Translations under genes and position numbers: made by a program
NCBI GenBank assembly: GCA_964384205.1
Contig: CAYLKS010000004.1
Location: 13,301-77,300, forward strand
DNA length: 64,000 nucleotides
Direction of reading: 5' to 3'
Source: an uncultured bacterium
Lineage (GTDB): Bacteria; JAGOEH01; CAYLKS01
Part shown: piece after piece, positions 18,099 to 51,242 of the stretch
How positions within the stretch are numbered: position 1 is the first letter of the stretch
How the letters are laid out: every line of letters starts with the position of its first letter
The notes under the pieces: generated by a model
Database searches by the model: none
What the model was told of the DNA's origin: nothing
The model's input: only the letters and a program-made list of their open reading frames with translations

Positions 18099-19553
<1,455 letters not shown>

Positions 19554-22634: not shown

Positions 22635-23594
22635 ATGAAACGCATTTTTGTAGATAATACAAAATTAATTTTTTCATTGATAACAAATAACTTTTCTAAA
22701 GTATGTAAAACAGCTATAGTTTTATATAAAATATTAATCCCTGTTTCTATTATTATTGAAATTTTAAAATATTTTCATATAGTTGAATTTATTGGAAAGA
22801 TCCTTAGTCCAATAATGCAATTTATTGGCTTGCCAGGTGAGGCAGGTATCGTATGGGCTACATCTATGCTTACAAATTTATATGGAGGAATTTTATCATA
22901 TATATCAATTTTTGGAAATAATCCATTATCTGTTGGGCAGATTACAATATTAACTTTTATGATGTTGATTGCCCATTCTTTTTTTGTTGAGATTACTATA
23001 GCTAAAAAATCAGGTGTAAAGATTTATCAAACATTTTTAGTTAGGTTCTTAGGTGCTTATTTAGCCGGAATTCTTTTAAGTTTTTTATTTAGTAAATTAC
23101 ATTTTGGATATAAGCCATCAAAACTTATATGGAAAAGTTCAAATGCAGGGGGCGGGGATTCTTTTGTTTTATTGAATTGGTTAATCGTTCAATTAAAAAA
23201 TTATTTATTGATTTTTATTGTTATTTATATTCTGGTTTTAATTATGGAATTTTTGAAAAAAAAGGGAATTTTAGATTTTTTGAATAGAAATTTGTATGTT
23301 TTTTTCAAATATATAGGAATTAGTCAGAGAGGAATCCCTTTACTAATTACAGGATTAATTATGGGAATATCTTATGGAGGAGCCTTTATTATTTCGGAAG
23401 TAGAGAGTGATACTATTACAAAAGAAGAGGCTTTTTTTGTAATAATTTTTTTGAGCTTATGCCATAGTTTGTTTGAAGATTCTTTATTGATGATTTCTTT
23501 GGGAGCTGATTTTTTTATACTTTTATTTGGAAGATTTTTATATTCAACTCTTATTACTTATATTATATTGAAAATATCTAAATACTATCTTTAA
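22635..23594 (+). CDS. Polytopic membrane protein with nucleoside-recognition (Gate)-like domains (SpmA/B or FeoB-gate-like)
   Basis: It has ~8 predicted TM segments. GLPGEAGIVWATSMLTNLYGGI resembles the Gate/nucleoside-recognition motif. Confidence 0.4.
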   Translation: MKRIFVDNTKLIFSLITNNFSKVCKTAIVLYKILIPVSIIIEILKYFHIVEFIGKILSPIMQFIGLPGEAGIVWATSMLTNLYGGILSYISIFGNNPLSVGQITILTFMMLIAHSFFVEITIAKKSGVKIYQTFLVRFLGAYLAGILLSFLFSKLHFGYKPSKLIWKSSNAGGGDSFVLLNWLIVQLKNYLLIFIVIYILVLIMEFLKKKGILDFLNRNLYVFFKYIGISQRGIPLLITGLIMGISYGGAFIISEVESDTITKEEAFFVIIFLSLCHSLFEDSLLMISLGADFFILLFGRFLYSTLITYIILKISKYYL

Positions 23595-23598
23595 TATC

Positions 23599-24771
23599 TT
23601 ATTTAATTTTTATTACAATTAAGGTTATATCATCATCAGGTTTCCGTGTCCCTAAAAAAAGCCCAAGTTCTTTTAATATATTTTCTATAATAGCTTTGGG
23701 GCTTTTATCTTTATTGTTTGATATTGTAGCTTGTAGTCTTTTTTTCCCAAATTGCTCTTTATTATAGTTTTGAGCTTCAATTATTCCGTCAGTGTAAAAC
23801 AATATAATATCTCCTGAATCTATATTAATATCATAATTTTTATATTTACTAGTTGGAAGAAGCCCTAAGAAGAAACTGGGAGCATCAATTTTTAATATTG
23901 TATTTTTTTTTGCACTATAAATTATAGGAGGGTGATGTCCGGCATTGGAAAATAGAAGTTTTTTTTCATTTATGTTTATATCACAATATAATGCGGTTAC
24001 GAAAAAATCGGTACCACCTACTAATTTATATACGTTAGAATTTAGTTTATCTAATAAATTATTTGGGGACATCCCCCCCATATCTAATATACTATTATAG
24101 AATGATTTTATTGCGGCGGTAATTAATGCAGATGGAGTACCATGTCCTGAAACATCTGCTATAAGTAATTGCAATGAATTCTGAAATATATTAAAATCAT
24201 AAAAATCCCCGCCAAGTTGGGTAGATGGTTGATAATAGAATGATATTTCAAAGCCATTATATTCCTGGGGGATATTACTGGGCAAAAGAGTTCTTTGTAA
24301 TTCAGCAGCTAATTCTAATTCTCGTTCTAAAAGTTTTTTTTGTTCTAATATTTTGTTTCTATTTTCTATAGTTGTTTTTAATAAGTTATAATAATTAATA
24401 GCATTTTTTACTTTTAGAGGTAATTGAATATTTAAAATATTATTCGAAAGAGGCTTTTCTAAATAATCAAAGCACCCAAAATTTAATGCCTTTTTTATGG
24501 ATTCTATATCTGATAAGGCTGAACTTACAATAATAGGGATATTTTTATATTCTTTTGTATTTTTTATCCAATTTAAGAACTCAAATCCATCCATAATAGG
24601 CATTGTTAAATCTAATATTATTAGATCAATTGCTTGGTCTTCTGTAATTTTTTTTGCAACCAGACCGTTTTCTGCTTCTAATATATTATAGTTATATTTT
24701 TTTAATGTAAAAAATAAAATTTTTCTATTGAGTTTTTCATCATCTACGATAAGTACACTTTTTTTATTCAT
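23599..24771 (-). CDS. Response-regulator receiver fused to a PP2C-type Ser phosphatase (RsbU/SpoIIE-like)
   Basis: The receiver has the acidic pocket VLIVDDEK, the phospho-Asp context LIILDLTMPIMDG, and the conserved Lys. The C-terminal PP2C motifs are GGDFYDF ... ADVSGHG ... DGIIEA. Confidence 0.75.
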   Translation of the reverse strand: MNKKSVLIVDDEKLNRKILFFTLKKYNYNILEAENGLVAKKITEDQAIDLIILDLTMPIMDGFEFLNWIKNTKEYKNIPIIVSSALSDIESIKKALNFGCFDYLEKPLSNNILNIQLPLKVKNAINYYNLLKTTIENRNKILEQKKLLERELELAAELQRTLLPSNIPQEYNGFEISFYYQPSTQLGGDFYDFNIFQNSLQLLIADVSGHGTPSALITAAIKSFYNSILDMGGMSPNNLLDKLNSNVYKLVGGTDFFVTALYCDININEKKLLFSNAGHHPPIIYSAKKNTILKIDAPSFFLGLLPTSKYKNYDINIDSGDIILFYTDGIIEAQNYNKEQFGKKRLQATISNNKDKSPKAIIENILKELGLFLGTRKPDDDITLIVIKIK

Positions 24772-24783
24772 ACAATATCCTTA

Positions 24784-25662
24784 TTAGAGGTCTTTATATT
24801 TTATTAATGTAATTTGGTTACCTTTATCATTATATTCAAATTTATCAAAAAAAGTTTTTATCATCAGAATGCCTCGTCCATGCTCATTTAATATATTTAT
24901 ATCGTCATTTATTGTTTTTTTCCAGTTAAATCCTTTCCCCTCATCTTTGATAACAAATTTTACATAATTTTCTGTTAAATGGTAATCTATAACAACCTTT
25001 CGTTTTGAGAAAACTGGATGTTTTTTTCTTTCAGATAATAAATCATAATATTTATTATCTTGAATAGCGTGCTTTTTAGTATTCCCATCAATTTCAAAAT
25101 TCCCATGTTCTATAGCATTAATAATTACTTCATAAAGAGCAAGTTCAATTTTTTTTATATTTCGGGTTATTTTTTTTGCATTGAAGGTTAATTGATTGAT
25201 TACACTGGGGATTTTGGATAGATCATTTTCTAAAATTATTCTTTTTTTTTCTTCTATTAATGTTTCAGTATCGTAGAGATTTATTATATTGCGATAGAGA
25301 AAAATAGCTTTATTTATTAAAGTGTTCCATTCTTCTTGTTTATCAGGGATTTCAAAACAATAGAATAATTTTTTAGAATATAGTGTATATAATATATCCT
25401 TTTTGATTTTTTTTACAAGAGCTATAGGGAGTACATCTAATAAAAGATTTCCAGAATGAATCATTTCAAGTAGTTTGGATATATTGGGGAGTGATTCGTT
25501 TTCATAATAATATAATAAGATATTTACTTTTTCTTTAAGAATTATATCAAAAGCTTCTTCTATGTTATTATTTACAATACTTTCTATTTCATATTTATGA
25601 GCATTTTTTTTTATTGTAGTTACTATTGGATGATTTTCTTGAGTGAACAGCAAAACCTTCAT
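24784..25662 (-). CDS. Pseudo-receiver fused to an RsbW-like GHKL Ser-kinase/anti-sigma-factor-type ATPase domain
   Basis: The N-terminal ~120 aa have a receiver-like fold but lack the acidic pocket and phospho-Asp (Y in that position). The C-terminus (LYEVIINAIEHGNFEID ... KDEGKGFNW ... EHGRGILMIK) has the N, G1 and G2 boxes of RsbW/SpoIIAB-type kinases. Confidence 0.55.
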   Translation of the reverse strand: MKVLLFTQENHPIVTTIKKNAHKYEIESIVNNNIEEAFDIILKEKVNILLYYYENESLPNISKLLEMIHSGNLLLDVLPIALVKKIKKDILYTLYSKKLFYCFEIPDKQEEWNTLINKAIFLYRNIINLYDTETLIEEKKRIILENDLSKIPSVINQLTFNAKKITRNIKKIELALYEVIINAIEHGNFEIDGNTKKHAIQDNKYYDLLSERKKHPVFSKRKVVIDYHLTENYVKFVIKDEGKGFNWKKTINDDINILNEHGRGILMIKTFFDKFEYNDKGNQITLIKYKDL

Positions 25663-25682
25663 TTTTTTAACTCACTATTAGT

Positions 25683-26741
25683 TTAGATTTCATTTAATAT
25701 AAAAGGGATTTTAAGTAATGGTACTATTTTTTTGACAGCGTTTAATTTAATTGCTTCTTTAGGCATTCCAAAGACCACACAGCTTTCTTCATCTTGAGCA
25801 ATAGTAAAAGCTCCCTTTTCTTTTAATGCAAGCATTCCTTTAGCTCCATCATCCCCCATACCTGTTAAAATAACTGCAATAGCATTACTACCTGCGGAAT
25901 TAGCTGCAGATTTAAATAAAACATCCACACTCGGTTTATGTCTATTTATAGGTGGTCCATCTTTTACTTCCACATAATAAGTAGTACCTGAGCGTTGCAA
26001 TAACATATGCTTGCCACCGGGAGCAATTAGAGCAAGGCCTTGTTCTAATTTATCACCATTTTCTGCTTCTTTTACTCTAATAGGACAGGTGCTATTTAAT
26101 CTTTCTGCAAAAGCTTTAGTAAATCCAACTGGCATATGTTGTGTAACTACTATTGGTTTGACACCTGTTTTTAATCTTTTGAAAATAGTTTCTATAGCGA
26201 CAGTTCCGCCAGTAGATGCTCCTATAACGATTACAGGATCGGTTTTTATTATTTTAGTTTTATAATCTTTTATATATTCATCTACATCTATTTTTTCTTT
26301 TAACCCGGTTTTAAACTTGCTATCTAATGTTTTTTGTGGAAGTATTTTTGCTTTGACTGCCATTTTCAATTTTTCTATAATTTCATTTTTTAGAGAATGT
26401 AGCTCTATAGGAGCAGAAGGTTTTTTTATGAAGTCTATAGCACCCAGCTCTAAAGCTTTCATTGTTATTTTTGAATGTTTATCTGTTAGAGAACTAACCA
26501 TTATAACCGGGGTTGGATATTTGTCCATAAGTTTTTCCAGAAAAGTAATGCCGTCCATTTTGGGCATCTCTACATCTAAAGTAATAACGTCAGGTTTTCC
26601 TTCTTTTACATATTTTCGAGCTTCATAAGGATTTGACGCTTCTCCAATAACAATAAAATCAGGATCGCTTAAAATAATATTTTTTAAAACAGTTCTTGTT
26701 AAAACTGAATCATCGATAATTAATACTTTTATTTTACTCAT
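25683..26741 (-). CDS. cheB: Chemotaxis response-regulator protein-glutamate methylesterase
   Basis: The receiver is KVLIIDDS ... DVEMPKMDG. The CheB methylesterase domain is GASTGG ... TQHMPVGFTKAFAERLN ... catalytic region. Length 352 aa. Confidence 0.85.
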   Translation of the reverse strand: MSKIKVLIIDDSVLTRTVLKNIILSDPDFIVIGEASNPYEARKYVKEGKPDVITLDVEMPKMDGITFLEKLMDKYPTPVIMVSSLTDKHSKITMKALELGAIDFIKKPSAPIELHSLKNEIIEKLKMAVKAKILPQKTLDSKFKTGLKEKIDVDEYIKDYKTKIIKTDPVIVIGASTGGTVAIETIFKRLKTGVKPIVVTQHMPVGFTKAFAERLNSTCPIRVKEAENGDKLEQGLALIAPGGKHMLLQRSGTTYYVEVKDGPPINRHKPSVDVLFKSAANSAGSNAIAVILTGMGDDGAKGMLALKEKGAFTIAQDEESCVVFGMPKEAIKLNAVKKIVPLLKIPFILNEI

Positions 26742-26744
26742 CTT

Positions 26745-28217
26745 TTATATCCTTTTAGGGTTAACTATTTCAAATATAAAAGTTATTCCATTTTTTTGTT
26801 CATAATAAAATTTTATTTTTAAAATATCTAATAAAAATTTAATTATATATATTCGTAAAGTCTTCAAATCAACCCTTTCTTCTTCTATATTAATATTGTC
26901 CAGTATAGTAAAATCATTAATAAGTTTATTATAAGAGTCTTCATTTATTCCATCTAAATTAAATTTAATATAAATTGCATTTGAGCTTTCGTCAATATTA
27001 ATTTTTATTTTTTTGAAAAAATTTCTGTGAATAATTATTATTTCCATAAAATAAGTTATCAAATAATAAAATAAGTCAAAATCGAATAAAATTTTATTAT
27101 TTGCAATATTTTGTTCTATCGATATTGGAAATTTAGTAATTCTTTCCTTTTCAAGAAAGTTATATATACAATCTTCAACAATTCTTATAACATCTATTTC
27201 TTGAGATTTAGCTTTCGACCTGAAAGAACTTATATTTAGCAGATATAATAGATCTTCTATAAATGAAATCATTTGATTATAAGAAGACATGCTTTGTGTG
27301 AGTGAAATTGTAATATCAGTATGCTCTAAAGTTTTTAAATAATCGAATATATTTGCAATATTTATTAGAGGAATCTTGATATTTTGAGACAAAATAGATA
27401 TAAGCTTTTTTTGAATTAGTAGTAAATTTTCTAATGTCTTATTTGTATTTTTTAGTTCTTTTTCATATAAAAATCTTTTTAAGTGAACATTTATTCTGGA
27501 AATAAATTCCTCATATAAAAATGGTTTTACAATATAGTCATTAATCCCGGCATTGAAAGCATCTAACATATTTTTTTTATCATTGTTGCTTGCTGTCATT
27601 ATAATAGGTGTATTGGTGTACTCTGATTTATTTCGTATTTTTTTGGTTAGTTCAATACCATTAATTTCTGGTAAAAATAAATCTATAATAAAAAGGTCAA
27701 TTTTGTTTTGATTCATAATTTTTATAGCTTCTAAAGGATTATCTGTGGAAAGAGTTTTATATCCATGCCGATCTAATATATATTTTATCATAGAATTTAT
27801 TAAAGGAGAGTTAATGACGACTAATATATTTATATCTTTAGAATTATTTTTAGCATAGAAGAAGTCCCTGACAAAATTATATAAATTATCTTTTATTTCA
27901 TTTTTATTAAAAAAATGAATTGCTCCTACATTAAAGCCTCTTATTCTTGAAAAAAAATTATCTTTACCTGTTATCAATATAACAGGGGTATTGAGCATTT
28001 TTTTATTTTGTTTGATTTTTCTGCACAATTCAAAACCATCCATTCCTTTCATTATAATATTTATAGTTATAAAATCTAAATTTGTTTTGTTGATAATATC
28101 TAAAGCATCAAATCCATTACTTGCCTCTATTATATTTGTGTCTTCCAGTTTTTCTAATTCTTCTTTTATTAGAAAACGAGCTATTTTACTATCATCAACA
28201 ATTAGTACATTTTTCAT
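26745..28217 (-). CDS. Tandem-receiver protein with a degenerate (His-less) histidine-kinase-like C-terminal region
   Basis: REC1 has the Asp pocket (LIVDDSK) but Asn at the phospho-acceptor site (DFITINIIMKGMDG). REC2 keeps the acceptor Asp (LFIIDLFLPEINGIEL) but lacks the DD pocket. The HisKA-like helix reads ILSQNIKIPLINI (Gln where the His of SHELRTPL would be). A poorly conserved ATPase-like tail follows. Confidence 0.55.
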   Translation of the reverse strand: MKNVLIVDDSKIARFLIKEELEKLEDTNIIEASNGFDALDIINKTNLDFITINIIMKGMDGFELCRKIKQNKKMLNTPVILITGKDNFFSRIRGFNVGAIHFFNKNEIKDNLYNFVRDFFYAKNNSKDINILVVINSPLINSMIKYILDRHGYKTLSTDNPLEAIKIMNQNKIDLFIIDLFLPEINGIELTKKIRNKSEYTNTPIIMTASNNDKKNMLDAFNAGINDYIVKPFLYEEFISRINVHLKRFLYEKELKNTNKTLENLLLIQKKLISILSQNIKIPLINIANIFDYLKTLEHTDITISLTQSMSSYNQMISFIEDLLYLLNISSFRSKAKSQEIDVIRIVEDCIYNFLEKERITKFPISIEQNIANNKILFDFDLFYYLITYFMEIIIIHRNFFKKIKINIDESSNAIYIKFNLDGINEDSYNKLINDFTILDNINIEEERVDLKTLRIYIIKFLLDILKIKFYYEQKNGITFIFEIVNPKRI

Positions 28218-28219
28218 TT

Positions 28220-28825
28220 TTATTCAAAAAAGTTTATTCTTTCATTATCTTTATGTGCTGTTTGTTCTTGTTGTAATCGTTTTACATAAGCCTGTTCTTG
28301 TTTTATTTCTTGTTGAATCTCTTTTGATACAGTGCTTCTTAATTTTTTTACAAGAACTTTATAAGTATCTGTGAAAAATAGAATTTTTCTTCCCTGATAA
28401 CCACCAACATCTTGGTTTACAATAGGAATCTTTTCTAATTTTAAAAAGGTTACAGCAAATCTAATATTATTATCTACAACATTCCCTTCTCTTGTTTTGT
28501 AATTTAAAACATGTCCACCACCAAATACTTTTGCTTTTAGATTTTCTTTTTTTCCACCCTTTTTTATAATGTCATTTATTAAAACTTCCATAGCGAAAAT
28601 ACCATAACGTGCTGATGGTTCCATAAATATACGTTCATCTCTGAGATCTCCCACCAGCATAAAATGATTCATTCCTGCAATATTATTCACTTCATCATAT
28701 AAACATACAGCAATGCAAGAGCCAAGTACTGTGGATATTATTTCATTATCCGTAGAAGTATAATATTCACCTGGATTAATGACAACCATTGTTTTGTTAA
28801 ATCTTTTTTCAAACTTTTTATACAT
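28220..28825 (-). CDS. cheD: Chemoreceptor glutamine deamidase CheD, with a ~40-aa charged coiled-coil C-terminal extension
   Basis: The CheD motif GSCIAVCLYD with its catalytic Cys, plus NHFMLVG, is present. The 201-aa length is ~40 aa longer than typical CheD; the tail is KKLRSTVSKEIQQEIKQEQAYVKRLQQEQ. Confidence 0.8.
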   Translation of the reverse strand: MYKKFEKRFNKTMVVINPGEYYTSTDNEIISTVLGSCIAVCLYDEVNNIAGMNHFMLVGDLRDERIFMEPSARYGIFAMEVLINDIIKKGGKKENLKAKVFGGGHVLNYKTREGNVVDNNIRFAVTFLKLEKIPIVNQDVGGYQGRKILFFTDTYKVLVKKLRSTVSKEIQQEIKQEQAYVKRLQQEQTAHKDNERINFFE

Positions 28826-28827
28826 CT

Positions 28828-29658
28828 TTAAACCTTCGTGTATATTGTGCTTTTTATATATTTAAAATTTTTAAAATTTAATAATGATTCACTATGCCCA
28901 ATAAAGATTAATCCATCATCTTTTAGATATTGATAAAATTTGTTTAATACATGTCTTTTCAGGTCATTATCAAAATAAATCATTACATTTCGGAAGAATA
29001 TAAAATCAAATTTTACTTTTATTCTATAGTCTTCTAGTTTAAAATTTAGTTTTCTAAAAGAGATTTTTCCCCTTAATAATGGTTTTACTTTATAATGAAC
29101 TTGCCCATTTAATTCAATTTTTTCAAAATATTTTTGTTTAAATGATTGGGGGACAGGATATAATAGCTGTTCTCTATAAATTCCTTGAGATGCTTTTGTT
29201 AGTATTTCTGTATCTATATCAGTTGCCAATATTTTAAAATCCCAGCCAGAATGCTTTGATAAAAAATTGTCCAGTACCATTGCAATTGTATATGGTTCTT
29301 CTCCAGAAGAACATCCTGCACTCCATACAAGTATTGTATAAGGATTATTGTTGGCAATTATTTTGGGGAGATGCTCTTTTTCTAAAAATTCGAAATGGTG
29401 TTTTTCGCGAAAGAAATCAGTTTTGTTAGTAGTTATTCTATTTATAAAATTGATCATTTCTTCAGAATTGTGCCCCTGATTTTTGATATAGTTTAAATAT
29501 TCAGTAAATGAGTTAATATTTAATTCTTTAAGTCTTCGAGTTAATCTTGCAATTATTAAACTTTTTTTTGCATCGCTTATTTTTATTCCAATATTATCAT
29601 AGATAATTTTTTTAAATTCTTTAAAATCTTTATCAGATATAGTATCTGGAATTAACAT
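28828..29658 (-). CDS. cheR: Chemotaxis protein methyltransferase
   Basis: The N-terminal all-helical domain is followed by the SAM motif WSAGCSSGEEPYTIAMVL. Length 276 aa. Confidence 0.85.
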   Translation of the reverse strand: MLIPDTISDKDFKEFKKIIYDNIGIKISDAKKSLIIARLTRRLKELNINSFTEYLNYIKNQGHNSEEMINFINRITTNKTDFFREKHHFEFLEKEHLPKIIANNNPYTILVWSAGCSSGEEPYTIAMVLDNFLSKHSGWDFKILATDIDTEILTKASQGIYREQLLYPVPQSFKQKYFEKIELNGQVHYKVKPLLRGKISFRKLNFKLEDYRIKVKFDFIFFRNVMIYFDNDLKRHVLNKFYQYLKDDGLIFIGHSESLLNFKNFKYIKSTIYTKV

Positions 29659-29661
29659 GTA

Positions 29662-31017
29662 TTAGGCACCTATTTTTTCACTTATTTCTTCAAAAATGAT
29701 TTCAAATAGTTTCTCAAGATTAATTAATATAATCATTCTTTTATCTTTTTTCCCAACACCGTATAAAAATTCTGTATTAATCTTTGTATGAGCAACTATC
29801 GGCTCCTGTACTTCTTTCATGTCAAATTCAACAATATCTGAGACAGAATCCACAACAATCCCTATAATTTTGTCTAAAACTTCTATTACTATAATTACAG
29901 AATACTTAGTAATTTTTATATTATTCATATTAAATTTTTTTCTTAAATCGAAAATAGGGATAACATTTCCTCTTAAATTTAACATTCCTAATATATAATC
30001 TGGTGTATTAGGTATAATATTAGGTTGATGGAAGCCAATAATTTCTTGTATTTTTAGTATTTCAATACCATATTCTTCATTATCCATAATAACAGTTATG
30101 TATTCTCTTATATCGTTTAATGGTTGCTCTTCTTCAATGTTTTGTACCTCATATTCTTCTGGTATTTTTTCTATTGTTTGTTTTTGAGATTCTTCTAAAT
30201 TTTCTTTTTTAAATTTTAATTCTTTTTTGTCTTGATTTGTTTTTAATATATCTTCTTCTTTTAGTTGTATAATATTATCTTCTTTTATCTTTAGTGTATA
30301 GGCGACCATGTCTTTTTCCATTGGTGAAAAATATAATATAGATATTGGTAAGTGTTCTTCAGTATCTTCAGATAAATCCTGGATTAGATTTATATTTATT
30401 TTATTATCTAAAATTTCACCGAAGTTTGTAGCTTCTTTTACAAAGCTCAAGGGATTAATGCCCTTTTTTTCTAAATCATTAATTAAATCTATATTGATAA
30501 CAAAAACATATCCTGTTTTAAATTTTGTTTTCAAAATAGCAATATTTACATCAAAATTATAAGAACAGTTATCTCTTTCAAATTTGGTGGTTGTATTCAA
30601 TTCTTGAATTAATTCCTTGTCTCCACTTTCCTTCAAAGAATTATCAAGTAATTGAAGGTATTCTGTTATATCCATATTATTGGATTCTTCTACATTATCA
30701 AGTAATTCTTTAAGCCGATCAATAGATTTTAATAAAGCATTCGATATAGAAGATGTCATATTTATTTTTCTATTTCTAATTAAATCAAGAATATCTTCCA
30801 TTTTATGTGATAGTTTTTCTATATTATGAAGTTCAATGAAAGACGCTCCACCTTTTATTGAATGTATTGCTCTGAATATATTATTAATTAAATCAGAATC
30901 AAATTCTCCTGCTTTTAACTGTTGTTCAAATGATAATATATCATTTTCAATATTATTTAAATGTTCAGAAGATTCTGCAACAAAGTCTGGTATTAAATAG
31001 GAAAAATCTTCAGCCAT
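29662..31017 (-). CDS. Hpt(P1)-linker-CheW(P5-like) protein lacking the CheA dimerisation and ATPase domains
   Basis: The N-terminal Hpt helix has the phosphorylatable His in FRAIHSIKGGASF (canonical HTLKG). An acidic/coiled linker of ~170 aa follows. The C-terminal CheW-like domain is GIEILKIQEIIGFHQPNIIPNTPDYILGMLNLRGNVIPIFDLRKKF. No H-box-independent ATPase motifs are present. Confidence 0.65.
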   Translation of the reverse strand: MAEDFSYLIPDFVAESSEHLNNIENDILSFEQQLKAGEFDSDLINNIFRAIHSIKGGASFIELHNIEKLSHKMEDILDLIRNRKINMTSSISNALLKSIDRLKELLDNVEESNNMDITEYLQLLDNSLKESGDKELIQELNTTTKFERDNCSYNFDVNIAILKTKFKTGYVFVINIDLINDLEKKGINPLSFVKEATNFGEILDNKININLIQDLSEDTEEHLPISILYFSPMEKDMVAYTLKIKEDNIIQLKEEDILKTNQDKKELKFKKENLEESQKQTIEKIPEEYEVQNIEEEQPLNDIREYITVIMDNEEYGIEILKIQEIIGFHQPNIIPNTPDYILGMLNLRGNVIPIFDLRKKFNMNNIKITKYSVIIVIEVLDKIIGIVVDSVSDIVEFDMKEVQEPIVAHTKINTEFLYGVGKKDKRMIILINLEKLFEIIFEEISEKIGA

Positions 31018-31030
31018 AATATCCCCCTGT

Positions 31031-31498
31031 CTATAATAAGTCTAATTCTTCTTGAAATAAAATTTTGTCAATATTAACAATTAGTACAAAATAATTCTCT
31101 TTTTTTATTACGCCAGCAATATATTCTCTATCTATATTGGAATTTGTAATTAGGCTAGGTGTTGGTTGAATATCTTCCTTACTAAAATTGATTATATCGG
31201 AAACAGAATCAACAATTATACCTATTAATTTATTTTTAATACTTAAAATTAAAATAACAGTGAATTTATCATATTCTTTTTCAGGGAGATTAAATCTACT
31301 CCTGATATCTATAATCGGTACTGCTTCTCCACGTAAATCTATAATTCCTTTCACAAATGGAGGCGAATTTGGAATTCTTGTTATAGGTTTATATCCGATA
31401 ACTTCTCTTATTTTTAATACTTCAACAGCATAATATTCATTATCTAAAGTAAAAATAATATACTGTGATGTTTCTTTTATAACATCATTGGATTGCAT
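31031..31498 (-). CDS. cheW: Chemotaxis coupling protein CheW
   Basis: At 155 aa it is a single CheW domain: YAVEVLKIREVIGYKPITRIPNSPPFVKGIIDLRGEAVPIIDIRSRF. Confidence 0.8.
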   Translation of the reverse strand: MQSNDVIKETSQYIIFTLDNEYYAVEVLKIREVIGYKPITRIPNSPPFVKGIIDLRGEAVPIIDIRSRFNLPEKEYDKFTVILILSIKNKLIGIIVDSVSDIINFSKEDIQPTPSLITNSNIDREYIAGVIKKENYFVLIVNIDKILFQEELDLL

Positions 31499-33605
31499 AG
31501 TTCCCCCTATTTATATTTACAAAGGCTAAATTTTCCAGACCGTAGATATCAAGGATTAGTGAAAGATTGCCATCTCCTAAAATGGTAACACCAGCAGTGC
31601 CTGGTAGCTGCATAAAATTTTTATCCAGAGATTTTATAACAGCTTGTTGTTCTCCAATTATATCATCAACCATTAATCCAAACTTTTTATTTCTGCTTCC
31701 TTCTATAATAATGATCAATGCTTTTGCAGGATCTGTTTTTTCTGTTTCTAAATTGAATAATTTATGTAATCTTACTAATGGTAAATATTCTCCTCTTACT
31801 TCTATCAATTCGCCTTCTTTTTCTATTGATTTTATATTTTCTTGCTGAGGTTTTATGCTTTCTATAATAGACATTAGGGGGATCGTAATATATTCTTTAC
31901 CAACTTTTACGATCATACCATCGATAATTGCTAATGTTAGAGGAAGTTTTATTTTAAATGTAGTTCCTATATCTTTTTGAGATTCTACTATAATTGAACC
32001 TTTTAAATCTTCAATATTCTTTCTTACTACATCTAATCCAACGCCTCTACCACTAATTTCTGTGACTTTTTCAGCTGTAGAAAATCCAGGCATAAATAGA
32101 AAACTATAAATATCTTCATCGGAAAATTTTTGATTAGGAGAAATGAGCCCTTTTGATATCGCTTTTTGATATACTTTTTCTTTATCTATACCTCTGCCGT
32201 CATCTTTTATTTCTATAAATATACTGCCCTCTTGTTGATATGCTTTTAATTGAATTAATCCTTCTTCTGGTTTTCCTTTTTTTCTTCTTTCTTCAGGGGA
32301 TTCTATGCCATGATCTACAGAATTCCTAATTAAATGTTTTAGAGGATCTCCCAGTTGTTCAATAACATTTTTATCTAATTCTGTTTCTGTTCCATACATT
32401 TCTAATCTAATTTTTTTATTTAATTCTTTTGACATATCTCTTACTATTCTATAAAATCTGTTGAATGTCCCCTCCACAGGAATCATTCTGACTTTCATTA
32501 CCTGTTCTTGAATTTCTCTTGAAAATCTAATAAGATCCTCTAATGCATTTGCCATATCATGATTTTTAATAAAATGATTATCTTTGGAAATCTGGTTTAG
32601 CCTTGCCATAGCTATAACCATTTCGCTAACTAAATTAACTAATTTGTCAAGTTTTTGTGTATCTACTCTGATAGTAGAAGCCTTTTTTATTTTTTGTCCA
32701 GTTTTTTTTATGACTTTATTACTCATAGGCTTCTCCTTTATAGGAATTTGTTTTGTTTTGTTCTGGTTATTATCATTTATATTAGTTTGTGGCTGAACTT
32801 GGACTGTTACAGACTCTTGAGTTTTCGCAGGAATATCTTGAGTTTTTGTAATATCTTCTTTTTTTTCTATATTTTTAAGATATTCATTTGTTATATCTGA
32901 TATTTTAATTTTATTATTATCATCCATTACAAAAATAAATATATTTTCAATTTGACTTATCGGTTCTTCAGATTTTAGAATTATTTCCCACGATATATAA
33001 TGTTTATATATATCAATTTGATCAAAAGCTGGCAGATTATCAATATTTGTTATTGTTTGGACAATTTCTCCCACTTCTTCAAGTTCATAGAAAAACATAA
33101 TAGGATTTGTACCTGTTTCATATATATGATTATTTAAAGAAATATTTATTTTATAGAACTTTAAACCCTTATCAGTTTTTTTGTCGATTTTAATATTTGT
33201 TTTCTCTTCTTTTTGTTCATTTGTTCCCAGAAAATTATTTGCTTGTTTTATTAATTCATTAAATGTTGGTTCTAATTTTGTAAAATCTTCGTTGAAATTC
33301 TTATCTGTTACAAATTTTAAGACATCTTCCACCTGAAATAGAAGATTGATTATTTCTTCATTTAAAGGAAGTTCGCCATTTCTTATAACATCTAATAAAT
33401 TTTCTATATGGTGGCAAAAATCTGACAATTTTGTATAACCAACCAATGCCGTACTGCTTTTGAAAGTGTGAATCGCTCGGAATAATGCATTTATGTTTTC
33501 GTTAAAATCTATATTTTGTTCTAAATTAAGGATTGCTTCCTCATACTGATTTAGTAAATCTTCTGCTTCCTGAAAAAAAATTTCTTTAATTTGATCCTGG
33601 TTCAT
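31485..33605 (-). CDS. cheA: Chemotaxis histidine kinase CheA (P1-P5 complete)
   Basis: The P1 Hpt has His in FRAIHTFKSS. There is a P3 dimerisation helix and a P4 GHKL domain (IRNSVDHGIE ... IKDDGRGID ... SGRGVGLDVV). The C-terminus is a P5 CheW-like domain. Length 706 aa. Confidence 0.9.
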   Translation of the reverse strand: MNQDQIKEIFFQEAEDLLNQYEEAILNLEQNIDFNENINALFRAIHTFKSSTALVGYTKLSDFCHHIENLLDVIRNGELPLNEEIINLLFQVEDVLKFVTDKNFNEDFTKLEPTFNELIKQANNFLGTNEQKEEKTNIKIDKKTDKGLKFYKINISLNNHIYETGTNPIMFFYELEEVGEIVQTITNIDNLPAFDQIDIYKHYISWEIILKSEEPISQIENIFIFVMDDNNKIKISDITNEYLKNIEKKEDITKTQDIPAKTQESVTVQVQPQTNINDNNQNKTKQIPIKEKPMSNKVIKKTGQKIKKASTIRVDTQKLDKLVNLVSEMVIAMARLNQISKDNHFIKNHDMANALEDLIRFSREIQEQVMKVRMIPVEGTFNRFYRIVRDMSKELNKKIRLEMYGTETELDKNVIEQLGDPLKHLIRNSVDHGIESPEERRKKGKPEEGLIQLKAYQQEGSIFIEIKDDGRGIDKEKVYQKAISKGLISPNQKFSDEDIYSFLFMPGFSTAEKVTEISGRGVGLDVVRKNIEDLKGSIIVESQKDIGTTFKIKLPLTLAIIDGMIVKVGKEYITIPLMSIIESIKPQQENIKSIEKEGELIEVRGEYLPLVRLHKLFNLETEKTDPAKALIIIIEGSRNKKFGLMVDDIIGEQQAVIKSLDKNFMQLPGTAGVTILGDGNLSLILDIYGLENLAFVNINRGNYAIQ

Positions 33606-33617
33606 AACTGCTACCTT

Positions 33618-34001
33618 TTATGTTCTGATAAATTTTTTTGCTACTTTTATTAACATTTCAGGAGAAAAGGGTTTTAAAAGCCATCCCGCTGCTCCAGCTT
33701 CTTTTCCTTTCATTTTCATTTCGTTTTGGGATTCTGTTGTTAGTACTATAATCGGAATGAATTTAAATTCACTTTGTTTTACAGTTTTGATAAATTCAAT
33801 TCCATCCATTACAGGCATATAAATATCACTGAAAATTAGTGATACCTTTTCATTATTTGCATATATTTCTTTTAATTTCTCGATTCCTTTTTGACCATTT
33901 TCTGCCTCATATACTTTATAACCAGAGGATTCTAATATAGCTCTAACACTGGCTCTTAAAGTAACCGAATCATCAACAATTAAAATTATAGGTTTATCCA
34001 T
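33618..34001 (-). CDS. cheY: Single-domain response regulator CheY
   Basis: The 127-aa protein has ILIVDDS, the acceptor region FSDIYMPVMDG, T in VLTTES and K in LLKPF. It lies directly downstream of cheA. Confidence 0.85.
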   Translation of the reverse strand: MDKPIILIVDDSVTLRASVRAILESSGYKVYEAENGQKGIEKLKEIYANNEKVSLIFSDIYMPVMDGIEFIKTVKQSEFKFIPIIVLTTESQNEMKMKGKEAGAAGWLLKPFSPEMLIKVAKKFIRT

Positions 34002-34014
34002 ATAAATATCCTTT

Positions 34015-34278
34015 TTAAATAAAAAACTTCAACAACCCCATTTTTTTTAATAATTCTTGAAAATTATTATCTTTAATATCAAATTTAGTTTTTGGATACG
34101 TCTTTTTAAAAGACATCAAGATCTGTAAATTTGCCATATGTATTTCTTTTATTTTATCAATTATTATTAAACAGGCATCTTTGTTCTTTATTTCAGCTAA
34201 ATTTTTATAAAGTGTATCGACATCTTCTATTGCTAAAGAATCATGCAGTCGAATATTATTAGCCTCTATTTCTATCAT
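34015..34278 (-). CDS. Small STAS-like (anti-sigma-antagonist-like) protein lacking the phosphorylatable Ser
   Basis: This 87-aa protein (MIEIEANNIRLHDSLAIEDVDTLYKNLAEIKNKDACLIIIDKIKEIHMANLQILM) has the hydrophobic periodicity of a STAS/SpoIIAA fold but no DSSG motif. Its stop overlaps the upstream gene by 4 nt. Confidence 0.3.
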   Translation of the reverse strand: MIEIEANNIRLHDSLAIEDVDTLYKNLAEIKNKDACLIIIDKIKEIHMANLQILMSFKKTYPKTKFDIKDNNFQELLKKMGLLKFFI

Positions 34279-35489
34279 TGTTTCTTCCTTAGGGTAAATA
34301 ATTTATCAAGTCTAAACGAAGAAAATAACATATAAATATCATCATTGAGATTTACAATTTCTATTTTGATCCCTTTTGAATCCAGAGTTTTATAAAGAGA
34401 TAATATTTTGCCAATACCAGAGCTTCCAATAAAAGGAACTCCTCCGAAGTCTAAAACTAAAGTAGATTCAACCTCATCAACTATCTCAGTAAGATATTTT
34501 TTTAGAGTTTCTGATTGAGAATTATCAATTTCTCCTTTGATTTTTACTATTAACTGATCTCCTATTTTTTCTTTGTTAATTACCATATTATAACTCCTTT
34601 TTGGATTAATTTTTTTTATTAATTTTACTTCATTTCCTTTGTTATTATAAACAATTTCATCAAAGGCGTATCTCATTATTCTTATACCACGCCCATTAAA
34701 CTGATCGGAATCAATATCCGATTCATATAAATATTTTTGCCAGTCAAAGCCTTCCCCTTGATCCTTTATACTAAAGATAAGAGTACTATCTTTTTTATTG
34801 AACTCCATTGTAATTGTAATTTGTTTATTTATAGTATCGTCATTTAACAAACGCGATATTATTAACTCGTCAAAATTTCCATTTTGTAAAGCTTTTCGTT
34901 TTGTTTCATAATCTATTTCTAAGTTGCCATGTTCAATAGCATTCATCAATGCTTCAAATAGTCCCACTCGTATTTTTTCTGCTTCATCTTTTAATATATG
35001 TTTAAATAGGAAAAGAAGTTGGTTTATTGTAGGATGTATTAGATTAATATCATTGTTTATACTAACAATTCTTTTTTCATATTCTATTGATTGGGTATCA
35101 ATGGTAGACATATCTATATACTGCCTTTGCAATATTATCTTGCTAAATAAGTCTTTTAGTTCACTAAAATTAAATGGTTTTGATAAAAAGAATGTTGCTC
35201 CACATTCCATTGCTTTTATTATATTTTCTTTATTTGAATATCCACTTAATCCTACAATTGTGATGTAATTATCTATTATTTTTGTTTCTTCAATAATTTC
35301 AAAGCCAATTTTATTATTATTTAAAATCAAATCAATTATTACTGTTTCTGGAGAGAATTGTTTAACTTTTTTAAAAAAATCTTTAGGCTCATTAGATAAT
35401 ATTGGATTGAAACCTAATTTAATTAAATATTTTTTCATAATATTTAGAATGTTTATATCATCATCTAATACTATCACATTTTTTTTCAT
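34275..35489 (-). CDS. Three-domain fusion: receiver + RsbW-like GHKL Ser kinase + STAS (anti-sigma-factor antagonist) with a phospho-Ser motif
   Basis: The receiver is canonical (VIVLDDDI, VIIDLIL, LSKPF). The GHKL region is LFEALMNAIEHGNLEID ... KDQGEGFDW ... GRGIRIMR. The C-terminal STAS carries FGGVPFIGSSGIGKIL, matching the SpoIIAA/RsbV DSSGLG phospho-Ser site. The start was chosen at the Met preceding KKNVIVLDDD; the listed ORF begins 16 codons upstream. Confidence 0.65.
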   Translation of the reverse strand: MKKNVIVLDDDINILNIMKKYLIKLGFNPILSNEPKDFFKKVKQFSPETVIIDLILNNNKIGFEIIEETKIIDNYITIVGLSGYSNKENIIKAMECGATFFLSKPFNFSELKDLFSKIILQRQYIDMSTIDTQSIEYEKRIVSINNDINLIHPTINQLLFLFKHILKDEAEKIRVGLFEALMNAIEHGNLEIDYETKRKALQNGNFDELIISRLLNDDTINKQITITMEFNKKDSTLIFSIKDQGEGFDWQKYLYESDIDSDQFNGRGIRIMRYAFDEIVYNNKGNEVKLIKKINPKRSYNMVINKEKIGDQLIVKIKGEIDNSQSETLKKYLTEIVDEVESTLVLDFGGVPFIGSSGIGKILSLYKTLDSKGIKIEIVNLNDDIYMLFSSFRLDKLFTLRKKQ

Positions 35490-35729
35490 ATATTTTCTCT
35501 CCATTAATATAATAAGTATATAAATAAATATTGTCAAGTTTTTTTGTAGAAATTATTTTTCTTTAGAGATTAATGTTTTAAAAGAATTGTATGGTACTTG
35601 ACTTATTTATATTTAGTAGCTATATTAAAATTATGTTGATAGTTAAAGTAGTATGTATATGGAACAATTACTTAGTGTATATCAAAAAATAGTAATGGTA
35701 AAAATTGTTTAAATTGGAGTGTATGGAAT

Positions 35730-36086
35730 ATGCGTTTTTTTAAAAAAAAAGATGATAGAAATTTAATGGACTTTATACCTGAGAAACTTGTTCAATCTCA
35801 AACAAATGAAGAAAATTTAGAAGTGTTAATTGTGCCTAAATTTAGAGATTTCTTTTTTGGCAAATTGTTACAACCTAAATTGCCTGAAAAAAAAGCTTAT
35901 TTTAGAATTAGTCTTGATGAATTTGGCACTTTCGTATGGAACTTGATTGATGGTAAGAGAACAGTTTTTGATATTTATAAAGAGTTTGAGAAAAAATATC
36001 CAGAAGAAGAGCAAAGTTTGCAAAGATTATCAAGATTTATTCAACTTTTGAAAGAAAGTAAATTTATAAAATATAACAATGTATAG
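35730..36086 (+). CDS. PqqD-like RiPP-recognition-element (RRE) family small protein
   Basis: This 118-aa ORF has a core (RISLDEFGTFVWNLIDGKRTVFDIYKEFEKKYPEEEQSLQRLSRFIQLLKESKFI) that aligns well with the PqqD consensus (LNETAAxIWELxDGxRTVxEIxxxLxxxYP ... VxxFLxxLxxxGLI). Its stop overlaps the rlmI start by 8 nt. Confidence 0.5.
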   Translation: MRFFKKKDDRNLMDFIPEKLVQSQTNEENLEVLIVPKFRDFFFGKLLQPKLPEKKAYFRISLDEFGTFVWNLIDGKRTVFDIYKEFEKKYPEEEQSLQRLSRFIQLLKESKFIKYNNV

Positions 36087-39765: not shown

Positions 39766-40770
39766 ATGAGACATTTTTTGGCAATAGAGGATTTTTCGTT
39801 TCAAGAAATTGAAGAGCTAATAAGTATAGCAAATGAATTAAAAAAAGATAGATATGCTTATTCTAATAGTTTAAAAAATAAAACACTGGTTTCTATGTTT
39901 TTGAATCCGTCAACACGTACCAGAATATCATTTGATCTTGCAATAACAGAACTCGGGGGACATTGCATTACAATTGAACCTGGAAAAGGTTCATGGGGCA
40001 TAGAGATAAAAGAAGGCACTATAATGGATAAAGATGCAGAGGAACATTTAAAAGATGCTGTTAATGTTTTATCTCGTTATGCTGATTTTATTGCGTTGAG
40101 AGCTTTCCCTGCTTTTCAAAATTGGGAAGAAGAGAAAAAAGATTTGATTTTAAATAATATGGCAAAATGGTCAAAAGTTCCAGTAATAAATATGGAGACC
40201 ATTACACATCCATGTCAGGCGCTTGCTATGATGCAAACTATAAAGTCTAAATTTGATAATTTAAAAAAGAAAAAATTTGTTTTAACATGGGCATATCATC
40301 CTAAGCCTTTAAATACAGCTGTTGCAAATTCTGCAGGTGTGATCGCAAGTATGAGTGGCATGGATGTTGTTGTAGCACATCCTGAAGGGTATGATTTAGA
40401 TCCATATTTTATAGATATTATGAAAAAAAATTGTGATGCGAATGGTTCTTCTTTTGAAATTGTTAATGATATGGACCGAGCTTTTGAAGATGCTGATTTT
40501 GTATATGCAAAAAGTTGGGGGGCTTTAAATCAATACAGCAATTTTCAACCAGAAATACATAATCGATATAGAAATTGGATTGTAAATTTAGAAAAAATGA
40601 AAAAAACAAATAATGCATATTTTAGCCATTGTTTACCTATTAGAAGAAATATGATAGCAACAGATGAAGTATTGGATAGTCCTAATTCATTAATTTATGA
40701 TGAAGCAGAAAATAGGTTGCATGTGCAAAAGGCTGTGCTTTTAAAATTAGATAAAGAGAGGGAGTTATGA
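39766..40770 (+). CDS. argF': N-acyl-L-ornithine carbamoyltransferase (N-acetyl- or N-succinyl-ornithine transcarbamylase, ArgF'-type), transcarbamylase fold
   Basis: STRTR carbamoyl-phosphate motif, HPCQ and HCLP motifs are present. The context supports the N-acyl type: an ArgE-like deacylase and an ArgB-GNAT fusion sit in the same operon, and no argJ is present. Confidence 0.65.
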   Translation: MRHFLAIEDFSFQEIEELISIANELKKDRYAYSNSLKNKTLVSMFLNPSTRTRISFDLAITELGGHCITIEPGKGSWGIEIKEGTIMDKDAEEHLKDAVNVLSRYADFIALRAFPAFQNWEEEKKDLILNNMAKWSKVPVINMETITHPCQALAMMQTIKSKFDNLKKKKFVLTWAYHPKPLNTAVANSAGVIASMSGMDVVVAHPEGYDLDPYFIDIMKKNCDANGSSFEIVNDMDRAFEDADFVYAKSWGALNQYSNFQPEIHNRYRNWIVNLEKMKKTNNAYFSHCLPIRRNMIATDEVLDSPNSLIYDEAENRLHVQKAVLLKLDKEREL

Positions 40771-50384: not shown

Positions 50385-51242
50385 TTAGGTAAGGTAAGGG
50401 CGGAGTTTTTTGCTTCTTCTGGTGTGTCTTAATCTTTTTATTGCCTTTTCTTTTATTTGTCTTACTCTCTCCCTTGTTAAACCATAGTTTTCACCGATTT
50501 CTTCTAATGTGTAAGATCTTTCTCTATTTATACCAAAGTATAGACAAATGACATCGCGTTCTCTTTCATCCAATTCATTTAGAACTTTCTCAATTTCTTC
50601 TTTTAATGAATTTTCCATAAGATTTTCATCTGGTAAAGGTTGTGATGAATCTTCAATAACATCCATAAGACTATTGTCTTCACCATCATTAAAAGGAGCA
50701 TCTAAAGAGCAGTGTTTACTGGAAAACCTTAATGCATCACTTACTTCACCACTTTTTATGGAAAGTTGTTCTGCAATTTCATGCGCATCTGGCTCTCTTC
50801 CAAATTGCTGCTGTAAATCATTTGTAGTTTTGCTAATTTTGTGGATAACACCAACTTTATTTAGTGGAAGTCTTACGATTCTTGATTGTTCTGCTAAAGC
50901 CTGAAGAATTGCCTGTCTTATCCACCAGACTGCATAAGAAATGAATTTGAAACCGCGGGTTTCATCAAAACGTTTTGCCGCTTTGATCAAACCAAGATTT
51001 CCTTCATTAATTAAATCTGCTAAAGATAATCCCTGGTTTTGATATTGCTTTGCTACAGCAACAACAAACCTTAAATTAGCTTTTGTTAATTGTTCTAATG
51101 CTTCTTGATCGCCTTTTTTTATTCTTTTAGCTAATTCAACTTCTTCTTCCGGCGTGAGAAGACTCTCCTCGCCTATCTCTTTTAAATACAAATCTAAAGA
51201 TTTTTCTTCGAACCTAAAAAACTTTTTTGCATACTTTGCCAA
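50385..51242 (-). CDS. sigA: Primary-type sigma-70 factor, FCB/Bacteroidota-style short SigA lacking region 1.1
   Basis: Region 2 is [58 protein letters not shown]. Regions 3 and 4.2 are present ([17 protein letters not shown]). The 285-aa length and near-identity of region 2 to Bacteroidota RpoD fit a short primary sigma. Confidence 0.75.

Follow-up and report, generated by a model that had tools for sequence, protein, structure and literature searches.

What does a serine kinase domain of the RsbW type do when a receiver and a STAS domain stand on the same polypeptide chain? The SpoIIAB/SpoIIAA and RsbW/RsbV pairs of Bacillus are the archetypes of the partner switch between a GHKL kinase and a STAS protein. 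The gene that raises the question lies at 34275..35489 on the minus strand of a 64,000-nucleotide (nt) stretch of DNA from an uncultured bacterium (GenBank assembly GCA_964384205.1, contig CAYLKS010000004.1, positions 13,301 to 77,300), here called the window, and it opens a chemotaxis-like (Che-like) operon. Positions below are those of the window, and features are on its minus strand unless stated otherwise. With a probability of about 0.6, we read the encoded fusion as a response regulator of the LvrC/TciR type joined to the STAS protein of the next gene, that is, as a recently tethered version of a two-protein pair at the head of a Che-driven partner-switch output module, in which GHKL domains would phosphorylate Ser356 of the STAS domain, a phosphatase with receiver and PP2C domains (REC-PP2C) would reverse this, and the receivers would couple both enzymes to CheA or an Hpt protein.

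Two papers from 2025-2026, on TciR and on LvrC, leave open what the RsbW-like domain of these regulators binds or phosphorylates. The fusion, together with split and fused relatives in which a receiver-GHKL (REC-GHKL) gene lies beside a STAS gene, often with genes for REC-PP2C and CheA/CheW, suggests a testable gene-fusion answer: the partner would be a STAS protein and the module a phosphoserine partner switch. This Rosetta-stone hint that regulators of the LvrC/TciR type partner a STAS protein is the main value of the locus, which would also add an example of chemotaxis-like pathways driving partner switches rather than flagella and whose product, a compact protein with a built-in substrate, could serve to measure how a receiver controls a Ser kinase. 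Beyond the partner hint and the Che example, its logic is conventional.

One gene encodes receiver, GHKL, and STAS domains

An uninterrupted open reading frame (ORF) called mechanically at 34275..35537 starts with TTG and encodes 420 amino acids (aa). The ATG at 35489, Met17 of that ORF (MKKNVIVLDDD), has GGAGAG 7 nt upstream, and the TTG at 35537 belongs to the -35 hexamer of a promoter-like site (TTGACA-17-TATTAT, 11 of 12 matches; 35509..35537), so that ATG 35489 is the best-supported start and the predicted product has 404 aa before the stop codon. The promoter-like site was the top match in a scan of 23300..35800, but this AT-rich DNA gave 114 matches against about 91 expected, and the site is therefore weak evidence for a promoter.

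Three Pfam domains exceed their curated gathering thresholds in the product: Response_reg (PF00072; residues 5-113, E = 2e-13, 50.9 bits against a cut-off of 30.2), HATPase_c_2 (PF13581; residues 166-292, E = 1e-11, 45.1 bits against 27.4), and STAS (PF01740; residues 304-401, E = 2e-19, 69.7 bits against 22.6). The NCBIfam model for anti-sigma factor antagonists, TIGR00377, also matched, at 62.9 bits against a cut-off of 53.45. An AlphaFold2 (AF2) model built on 79 sequences has a mean predicted local distance difference test (pLDDT) of 90.2 and a predicted template modeling score (pTM) of 0.69, a fairly confident multidomain model, although such a pTM is only suggestive as to whether Ser356 could reach the ATP site.

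The receiver (residues 1-125; 35115..35489) retains D9-D11, the phospho-acceptor D53 (codon 35331..35333), S82, and K104, and is modeled as a (beta-alpha)5 fold of five strand/helix pairs, from strand 4-8 to helix 108-128, with D53 on strand 49-53, S82 on strand 77-83, and K104 on strand 100-104. In the GHKL, or Bergerat, domain (residues ~135-294; 34608..35087), supported by the HATPase_c_2 match, a match to LvrC, and alignments, the N box (E179xxxN183), G1 box (D243xG245xG247), and G2 box (G266xG268) are all intact, and their residues are nearly invariant across 79 relatives. The STAS domain (residues 302-404; 34278..34586) carries the predicted phospho-acceptor Ser356 (codon 34422..34424) within FIGSSGIG, as G355-S356-S357-G358. 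HMMER aligned this motif with FMDSSGLG of SpoIIAA (1th8_B) and with FMDASGLG of the chain 1tid_B, where Ala stands in for the first Ser, and S356 is by these alignments the counterpart of the SpoIIAA acceptor, Ser58. The modeled domain has the order beta-beta-alpha-beta-alpha-beta-alpha-beta, S356 being the first residue of helix 356-370, and Foldseek matched its fold to 1tid_D with a template modeling (TM) score of 0.77. The acceptor Ser column is invariant in all fused and free STAS domains aligned.

The original prediction, made from the DNA letters alone, had proposed a single polypeptide with a canonical receiver, a GHKL domain of the RsbW/SpoIIAB type, and a STAS domain with Ser at the position phosphorylated in SpoIIAA and RsbV, and each of these parts is borne out. 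It had also looked to conservation of that Ser in orthologs: GSSGIG is present in the fused copies on an ENA contig (L001) and a JGI contig (L090), in the fused JGI protein P0099, and in a free STAS protein (P0126), a narrow range of orthologs.

A one-nucleotide change in a poly-A run probably made the fusion

In the AF2 model the linker between the GHKL and STAS domains is only ~9 residues long (294-302). The DNA of the junction reads ...GTA AAA TTA ATA AAA AAA ATT AAT CCA AAA AGG AGT TAT AAT ATG and contains a run of eight adenines (A8; 34610..34617) in codons 291-294, in the present frame A_AAA_AAA. When one A was added in simulation, translation ended as ...NEVKLIKKN-stop, giving 294 aa, the usual length of the family; when one A was removed, the stop codon overlapped the ATG of Met302, a short start/stop overlap such as that between the separate REC-GHKL and STAS genes of another locus (L007). 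Among the A8 run and these two variants, only A8 fuses the genes. The linker also contains a Shine-Dalgarno-like hexamer, AAGGAG (34594..34599), 7 nt upstream of the Met302 ATG (34584..34586). Across 51 window genes, AGGAG at positions -5 to -16 precedes 3 of 329 internal in-frame ATGs, one of the 3 probably a mis-called gene start, and the full AGGAG is found at 4 of the 51 annotated starts. Met302 aligns to Met1 of the free STAS ortholog P0126.

The poly-A run at which either single-nucleotide change restores a stop codon, the intact AAGGAG-7 nt-ATG, and the alignment of Met302 with the start of a free STAS protein together argue that an LvrC-like gene and a downstream STAS gene were probably joined by a 1-nt change in poly-A and that the fusion is recent; the simplest reading of the 9-aa linker is a former intergenic spacer. 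Since the linker preserves the ribosome-binding site and ATG of the STAS gene, translation of free STAS may continue alongside the fused form, and slippage at A_AAA_AAA could yield REC-GHKL lacking STAS. Programmed frameshifting is not claimed, because in this genome of 28% GC runs of at least eight A are frequent, 59 kb of coding sequence containing 38.

The same fused frame is found, in gap-free alignments, in L001 (99.8% nt identity over 11.5 kb) and in L090 (98.0% over the first 855 nt, an alignment spanning the fusion gene and the 87-aa ORF that follows it), and P0099 (409 aa), a JGI protein of the same 90% cluster, is also fused. Over the last 192 codons of the fusion gene, the window and L090 differ by 6 synonymous and 10 nonsynonymous changes, a ratio of nonsynonymous to synonymous differences per site (pN/pS) of ~0.40, which means constrained but fast evolution. 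The differences are unevenly spread: 16 of the 17 mismatches with L090 fall in the last 576 nt of the fusion gene against 1 in the next 732 nt, and 6 of the 24 mismatches with L001 over 11.5 kb fall in the fusion gene, 5 of these 6 being nonsynonymous. Such clustering points to relaxed or diversifying selection.

The junction could also be read as a recent and nearly neutral frameshift, a history that we consider possible but doubtful. The working parts would then be separate, with a 294-aa REC-GHKL produced at A_AAA_AAA by transcriptional or -1 ribosomal slippage and a STAS protein of 103 aa initiated at the internal Shine-Dalgarno sequence and ATG, and the full chain would be a by-product. 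The position of the A8 run exactly at the junction, where one more A ends the protein at typical family length, fits this history, although the abundance of such runs means that slippage need not be programmed. An AAGGAG of a kind rare inside genes, and absent in full from most annotated starts, and the alignment of Met302 with the first residue of a free ortholog fit it as well. The concentration of substitutions in the fusion gene, many of them nonsynonymous, is offset by a pN/pS that still indicates constraint, and the confinement of the exact architecture to a cluster of at least 98% nt identity by the retention of the fused frame in the window, L001, and L090 despite a mutable A8, as well as by the viability and recurrence of GHKL-STAS fusions elsewhere.

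Some GHKL domains of the LvrC type are found with STAS proteins

The closest solved relative of the fusion is 9qih, LvrC of Leptospira (E = 1e-18; 5e-52 with a family profile), which was also the top Foldseek match. SenB, the molecule name given for 9qih, retrieved only unrelated literature, and the structure was identified as LvrC from its Foldseek description. The fusion GHKL domain bears, after the N box, an insertion of ~27 residues that marks domains of the LvrC/HsbR type and is shared by a 568-aa Pseudomonadales REC-PP2C-GHKL protein (P0090), likened to HsbR by domain order only.

A search of 5.8 billion proteins returned ~90 relatives with the architectures REC-GHKL (~300 aa) or REC-PP2C-GHKL (~570 aa), among which STAS was present only in the cluster of the query itself. 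Residues 125-404 were then compared with 1.84 billion cluster representatives, and the best 150 of 7390 matches were examined. Only the query's own cluster reached E < 1e-30, but the best 150 include a 685-aa REC-PP2C-GHKL-STAS protein (P0110), eight GHKL-STAS proteins of ~245 aa identified with Pfam (for example, P0153), and the free 102-aa STAS protein P0126, 51-52% identical and with the same FIGSSGIGK motif. A metagenome scan added two full REC-PP2C-GHKL-STAS proteins (L091 and L092) and a fragment (L094). In the ~245-aa and four-domain fusions the GHKL-STAS linker has ~20-45 residues, against ~9 in the window protein. Two candidates were rejected: L071, matched over residues 116-347, encodes a GHKL protein with a cyclic nucleotide monophosphate (cNMP)-binding domain, and in L099 the frame examined is interrupted by stop codons between the GHKL part and the STAS part. 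The insertion-bearing GHKL subfamily is modular, with a C-terminal cNMP-binding domain in L071 (9557-10909 of that locus), REC-GHKL-PP2C in P0007, and REC-PP2C-GHKL-STAS in P0110, L091, and L092.

Kinase-STAS fusions thus recur, with and without a receiver, and the exact REC-GHKL-STAS order, seen in this lineage alone, is new and rare. How widespread the architecture is had been left to database searches by the original prediction, and the answer is divided: the exact order occurs only in its own lineage of at least 98% identity, whereas GHKL-STAS fusions occur elsewhere. The accompanying premise that kinase and antagonist are normally separate proteins holds in that relatives usually encode them in separate genes, but it overstated the novelty of a fused pair, given Rv1364c of Mycobacterium tuberculosis and the two fused families described here.

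Gene context agrees with the pairing. In L007 a REC-GHKL gene (P0002, 30% identical) is overlapped by a gene for a 95-aa STAS protein, and a REC-PP2C gene lies 3 kb upstream; a PilZ gene is present 1 kb upstream of the REC-GHKL/STAS pair. Genes for PP2C, REC-GHKL, STAS, CheA, and CheW are found together in a Rickettsiales metagenome-assembled genome (MAG; L009) and in two Nitrospirales MAGs (L022 and L025), the order in L089 is REC-PP2C, a 244-aa GHKL-STAS fusion, CheA-REC, MCP (methyl-accepting chemotaxis protein), CheW, and CheB, and P0153 sits between REC-PP2C and CheA/MCP/CheW/CheB. The gene fusion itself, these neighborhoods, the REC-PP2C gene of the window operon, and the published HsbR/HsbA pair back the view, already part of the original prediction, that GHKL domains of the LvrC/TciR/HsbR type are paired with STAS as kinase and putative substrate or partner.

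A second GHKL protein is conserved with STAS and REC-PP2C

The operon encodes a second GHKL protein of 292 aa (24784..25662; HATPase_c_2 E = 3e-16), a paralog of the fusion GHKL domain with 34% identity over 208 aa by BLASTP and, in alignment, intact N, G1, and G2 boxes. Its first 130 aa gave no Pfam match at E <= 10 and an hhalign receiver probability of 0.2%. However, residues 87-144, which lie inside the 208-aa BLASTP high-scoring pair, are colinear with the alpha4-beta5-alpha5 region of the fusion, and MAFFT placed Q/E, N/E, and I at the positions of receiver D10, D53, and K104; a dead receiver in this region is plausible but unproven.

A cluster in a Candidatus Delongbacteria MAG (L002) encodes, in order, STAS, CheY, CheD, a 296-aa GHKL protein, and REC-PP2C. 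Its free STAS protein is 52% identical to the STAS part of the fusion, and its CheY, CheD, and REC-PP2C are 64%, 58%, and 49% identical, respectively, to those of the window; its 296-aa GHKL protein is 38% identical to the 292-aa protein over the full length and 32% identical to the fusion GHKL domain. Judged from this orthologous cluster, in which STAS is free and the only GHKL protein matches the 292-aa protein, the conserved triad is STAS, the 292-aa GHKL protein, and REC-PP2C, the 292-aa protein is the ancestral partner of STAS, conserved as an ortholog, and the receiver-bearing GHKL domain joined to STAS is a lineage-specific addition. The second GHKL copy had been predicted, and it is real; of the two roles suggested for it, decoy or partner, that of decoy is contradicted by its full-length orthology to the sole GHKL protein of L002 and by its intact boxes.

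An 87-aa ORF (34015..34278) follows the fusion gene, its ATG overlapping the TGA of the fusion (ATGA) downstream of AAGGAAG. The protein is identical in L090, where the gene differs by one synonymous change, and from the overlap, the AAGGAAG, and the identical copy it is probably a real gene. It had been taken for a STAS domain of reduced size without the Ser, for which we found no support, although this falls short of disproof: there was no Pfam or NCBIfam STAS match and no PDB match at E <= 10, the hhalign probability for its alignment with STAS was 9%, and a single-sequence AF2 model of low confidence (pLDDT 59) was mostly helical. A homolog search returned only the identical copy, and the ORF is absent from L002.

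The fusion heads a chemotaxis-like operon

On the minus strand the gene order is fusion, 87-aa ORF, CheY, CheA, CheW, Hpt-CheW, CheR, CheD, a protein with two receivers, CheB, the 292-aa GHKL protein, and REC-PP2C. Pfam identified the CheY-like single-domain receiver (33618..34001), CheA with Hpt, dimerization, HATPase_c, and CheW-like domains (31485..33605), and CheW (31031..31498), and Pfam and NCBIfam identified the Hpt-CheW protein, which resembles CheA without the dimerization and kinase domains (29662..31017). The CheR methyltransferase (28828..29658) was recognized from precomputed Pfam matches to the identical gene in L001, and CheD (28220..28825) and the CheB methylesterase with its receiver domain (25683..26741) from the annotation of L001. 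The final gene encodes the REC-PP2C phosphatase of the SpoIIE family (23599..24771; SpoIIE E = 9e-48, Response_reg E = 2e-25), the likely opposing phosphatase for phosphorylated STAS. From operon context, CheA is the presumed phosphodonor to the receivers, and we propose that the pathway is chemotaxis-like but of a nonmotility type.

Several details of the operon deserve record. With CheA, two CheW-type proteins, CheR, CheD, and CheB, it yet contains no MCP gene. In CheA, codon 294 is an in-frame ATG preceded by AAGGAG just ahead of the dimerization domain (310-372); a short CheA without Hpt could start there, and with the Hpt-CheW protein it would resemble a split CheA pair of P1-P5 and P3-P4-P5 types. 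The double-receiver protein (490 aa; 26745..28217), identified with Pfam, has a C-terminal half of ~250 aa without a Pfam family that, read by eye, resembles a degenerate His-kinase core from which the conserved His is missing.

Every element of the fusion has precedent

Receiver-gated RsbW-like domains, Che-linked partner switches, and kinase-STAS fusions in cis all have precedents. LvrC, which controls virulence genes in Leptospira, is a Rec-Bergerat protein that was crystallized as a homodimer with ADP:Mg, is phosphorylated by its kinase, and has a fold described as similar to RsbW/SpoIIAB. The architecture recurs in TciR of Vogesella, whose kinase activity and partners are described as open in the paper on it (PMC12826045). 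The window protein shares with both the Rec-Bergerat core with an insertion after the N box, and phosphorylation by a cognate kinase is the expected counterpart in the window; the difference is the added STAS domain, which LvrC and TciR lack.

HsbR of Pseudomonas aeruginosa uses its GHKL domain to phosphorylate Ser56 of the STAS protein HsbA, and CrsR/CrsA are encoded in the che1 locus of Shewanella (S. oneidensis) with CheA, CheY, CheW, CheR, CheD, and CheB. Both GHKL domains bind RpoS besides phosphorylating their STAS partner. Common to these systems and the window are a receiver-controlled GHKL Ser-kinase/anti-sigma domain and a PP2C enzyme acting, or predicted to act, on a STAS protein. 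In HsbR/HsbA and CrsR/CrsA, however, kinase and phosphatase form one chain and STAS is separate, whereas in the window it is kinase and STAS that form one chain, and the phosphatase, which has a receiver of its own, is a separate protein. SypE is a further precedent for receiver-gated RsbW-like domains, alongside LvrC, TciR, HsbR, and CrsR.

The precedent for kinase and substrate on one chain is Rv1364c, a PAS-PP2C-GHKL-STAS protein whose kinase domain phosphorylates Ser600 of its own STAS domain and whose PP2C domain dephosphorylates it. Rv1364c was not among the matches listed in our homolog and PDB searches, and the likeness, an RsbW-type kinase and its STAS substrate sharing one polypeptide, is by description; its input domain is PAS rather than a receiver, its phosphatase is on the same chain rather than in a separate REC-PP2C gene, and it has no Che context. 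The ~245-aa GHKL-STAS and ~690-aa REC-PP2C-GHKL-STAS families likewise combine both domains in one chain with a conserved acceptor Ser, but their GHKL-STAS linkers are much longer; the former lacks a receiver and the GHKL insertion, and the latter has the phosphatase in the same chain. The SpoIIAB/SpoIIAA and RsbW/RsbV pairs resemble the fusion in the alignment of S356 with the SpoIIAA acceptor and in the STAS fold, and differ in being separate proteins with no receiver, a defined sigma-factor target, and a GHKL domain without the insertion.

A tethered partner switch is the preferred reading

In the reading that we prefer, CheA or the Hpt-CheW protein would phosphorylate the receivers of the fusion and of REC-PP2C; the GHKL domain of the fusion, the 292-aa paralog, or both would phosphorylate Ser356; and REC-PP2C would take the phosphate off. 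The phosphorylation state of STAS would then select its binding partner, a GHKL domain or another target, and so set the downstream output. Phosphorylation of Ser356 would most likely occur within or across dimers rather than strictly on one chain: because LvrC is a homodimer and the linker has only ~9 residues, a reaction in trans between the chains of a dimer is no less likely than one in cis. The 1-nt frame change in poly-A would have made the fusion, with free STAS probably still produced.

Several observations weigh against this reading. The operon encodes no sigma or anti-sigma factor or other obvious target, and the single sigma-70-family gene found in the window (50385..51242) is RpoD-like and 15 kb away. 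Neither an MCP gene nor one for an alternative sigma factor was present among the window ORFs scanned, a scan that covered all but 39766-46309 and a few small ORFs. Of 80 genome loci with a GHKL domain of this type, only 12 showed a STAS ORF in the flanking DNA retrieved, sequence alone matched the fusion GHKL domain to RsbW in the PDB with only E = 0.1, and the kinase activity of two-domain proteins of the LvrC/TciR type is an open question (PMC12826045). Moreover, all known proteins with the exact fusion come from DNA of at least 98% nt identity, too close a set to establish that the fused state has been selected over the long term.

A strictly intramolecular toggle, as originally envisaged, in which the phosphorylated receiver prompts the GHKL domain to phosphorylate the STAS Ser of its own chain and the tethered STAS domain switches by docking and undocking, appears unlikely. 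Kinase and substrate do share one chain, none of the motifs is damaged, autophosphorylation of a STAS domain is reported for Rv1364c, and the multidomain AF2 model is fairly confident, but the linker is short beside the ~20-45 residues of other fusions, and LvrC and other RsbW-type domains are dimeric, which makes trans reactions possible. In addition, the operon contains a second intact GHKL protein, itself a conserved partner, and the internal Shine-Dalgarno sequence and ATG suggest that free STAS is also made.

We think it quite unlikely that the GHKL domain serves mainly to sequester a target under receiver control, in the manner of an anti-sigma factor and as proposed for LvrC, with the tethered STAS domain as a built-in antagonist in competition with that target and Ser phosphorylation secondary or performed by the other GHKL protein. 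A dedicated PP2C phosphatase in the operon implies a phosphoserine cycle, neither the catalytic E/N/G1/G2 residues nor the acceptor Ser has been lost, and the operon offers no candidate sigma factor, even though the GHKL domains of CrsR and HsbR bind RpoS as well as phosphorylating their STAS partners and the same subfamily is fused in L071 to a cNMP-binding sensor domain that is not a substrate. An error of sequencing or assembly in the homopolymer, the genome really having two genes, is highly improbable: the junction is an A8 run at which a change of 1 nt would split the ORF cleanly, but the same A8 length and frame recur without gaps in the independent ENA (L001) and JGI (L090) assemblies, from other samples, and P0099 is fused too, so the fusion is not an assembly artifact.

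The tethered switch could be elaborated further, and we offer the following as a speculation that is unlikely to be right. One locus might yield three species, full-length REC-GHKL-STAS, 294-aa REC-GHKL by slippage, and 103-aa free STAS from the AAGGAG-ATG, and the gain or memory of a push-pull phosphoserine switch driven by CheA might depend on the ratio of tethered to free antagonist. If so, the push and pull would be a receiver-gated kinase against a receiver-gated PP2C phosphatase, and the fusion would be a Rosetta stone indicating that the so far partnerless LvrC/TciR class acts through STAS proteins.

Other features of the window

On the plus strand, a divergent gene for a PqqD-family protein (118 aa; 35730-36086) lies directly upstream of the promoter region of the Che operon; it has no adjoining radical-SAM partner, and the next gene encodes an RlmI-like methyltransferase. 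The glutamate-dehydrogenase-like ORF at 18120-19553 (plus strand) probably has its GTG start placed too far upstream; AAGGAGG precedes the ATG at codon 31. A 559-aa protein encoded at 4485-6164 (plus strand) has PilZ, a domain of the cyclic di-GMP receptor type, as its sole recognizable domain.

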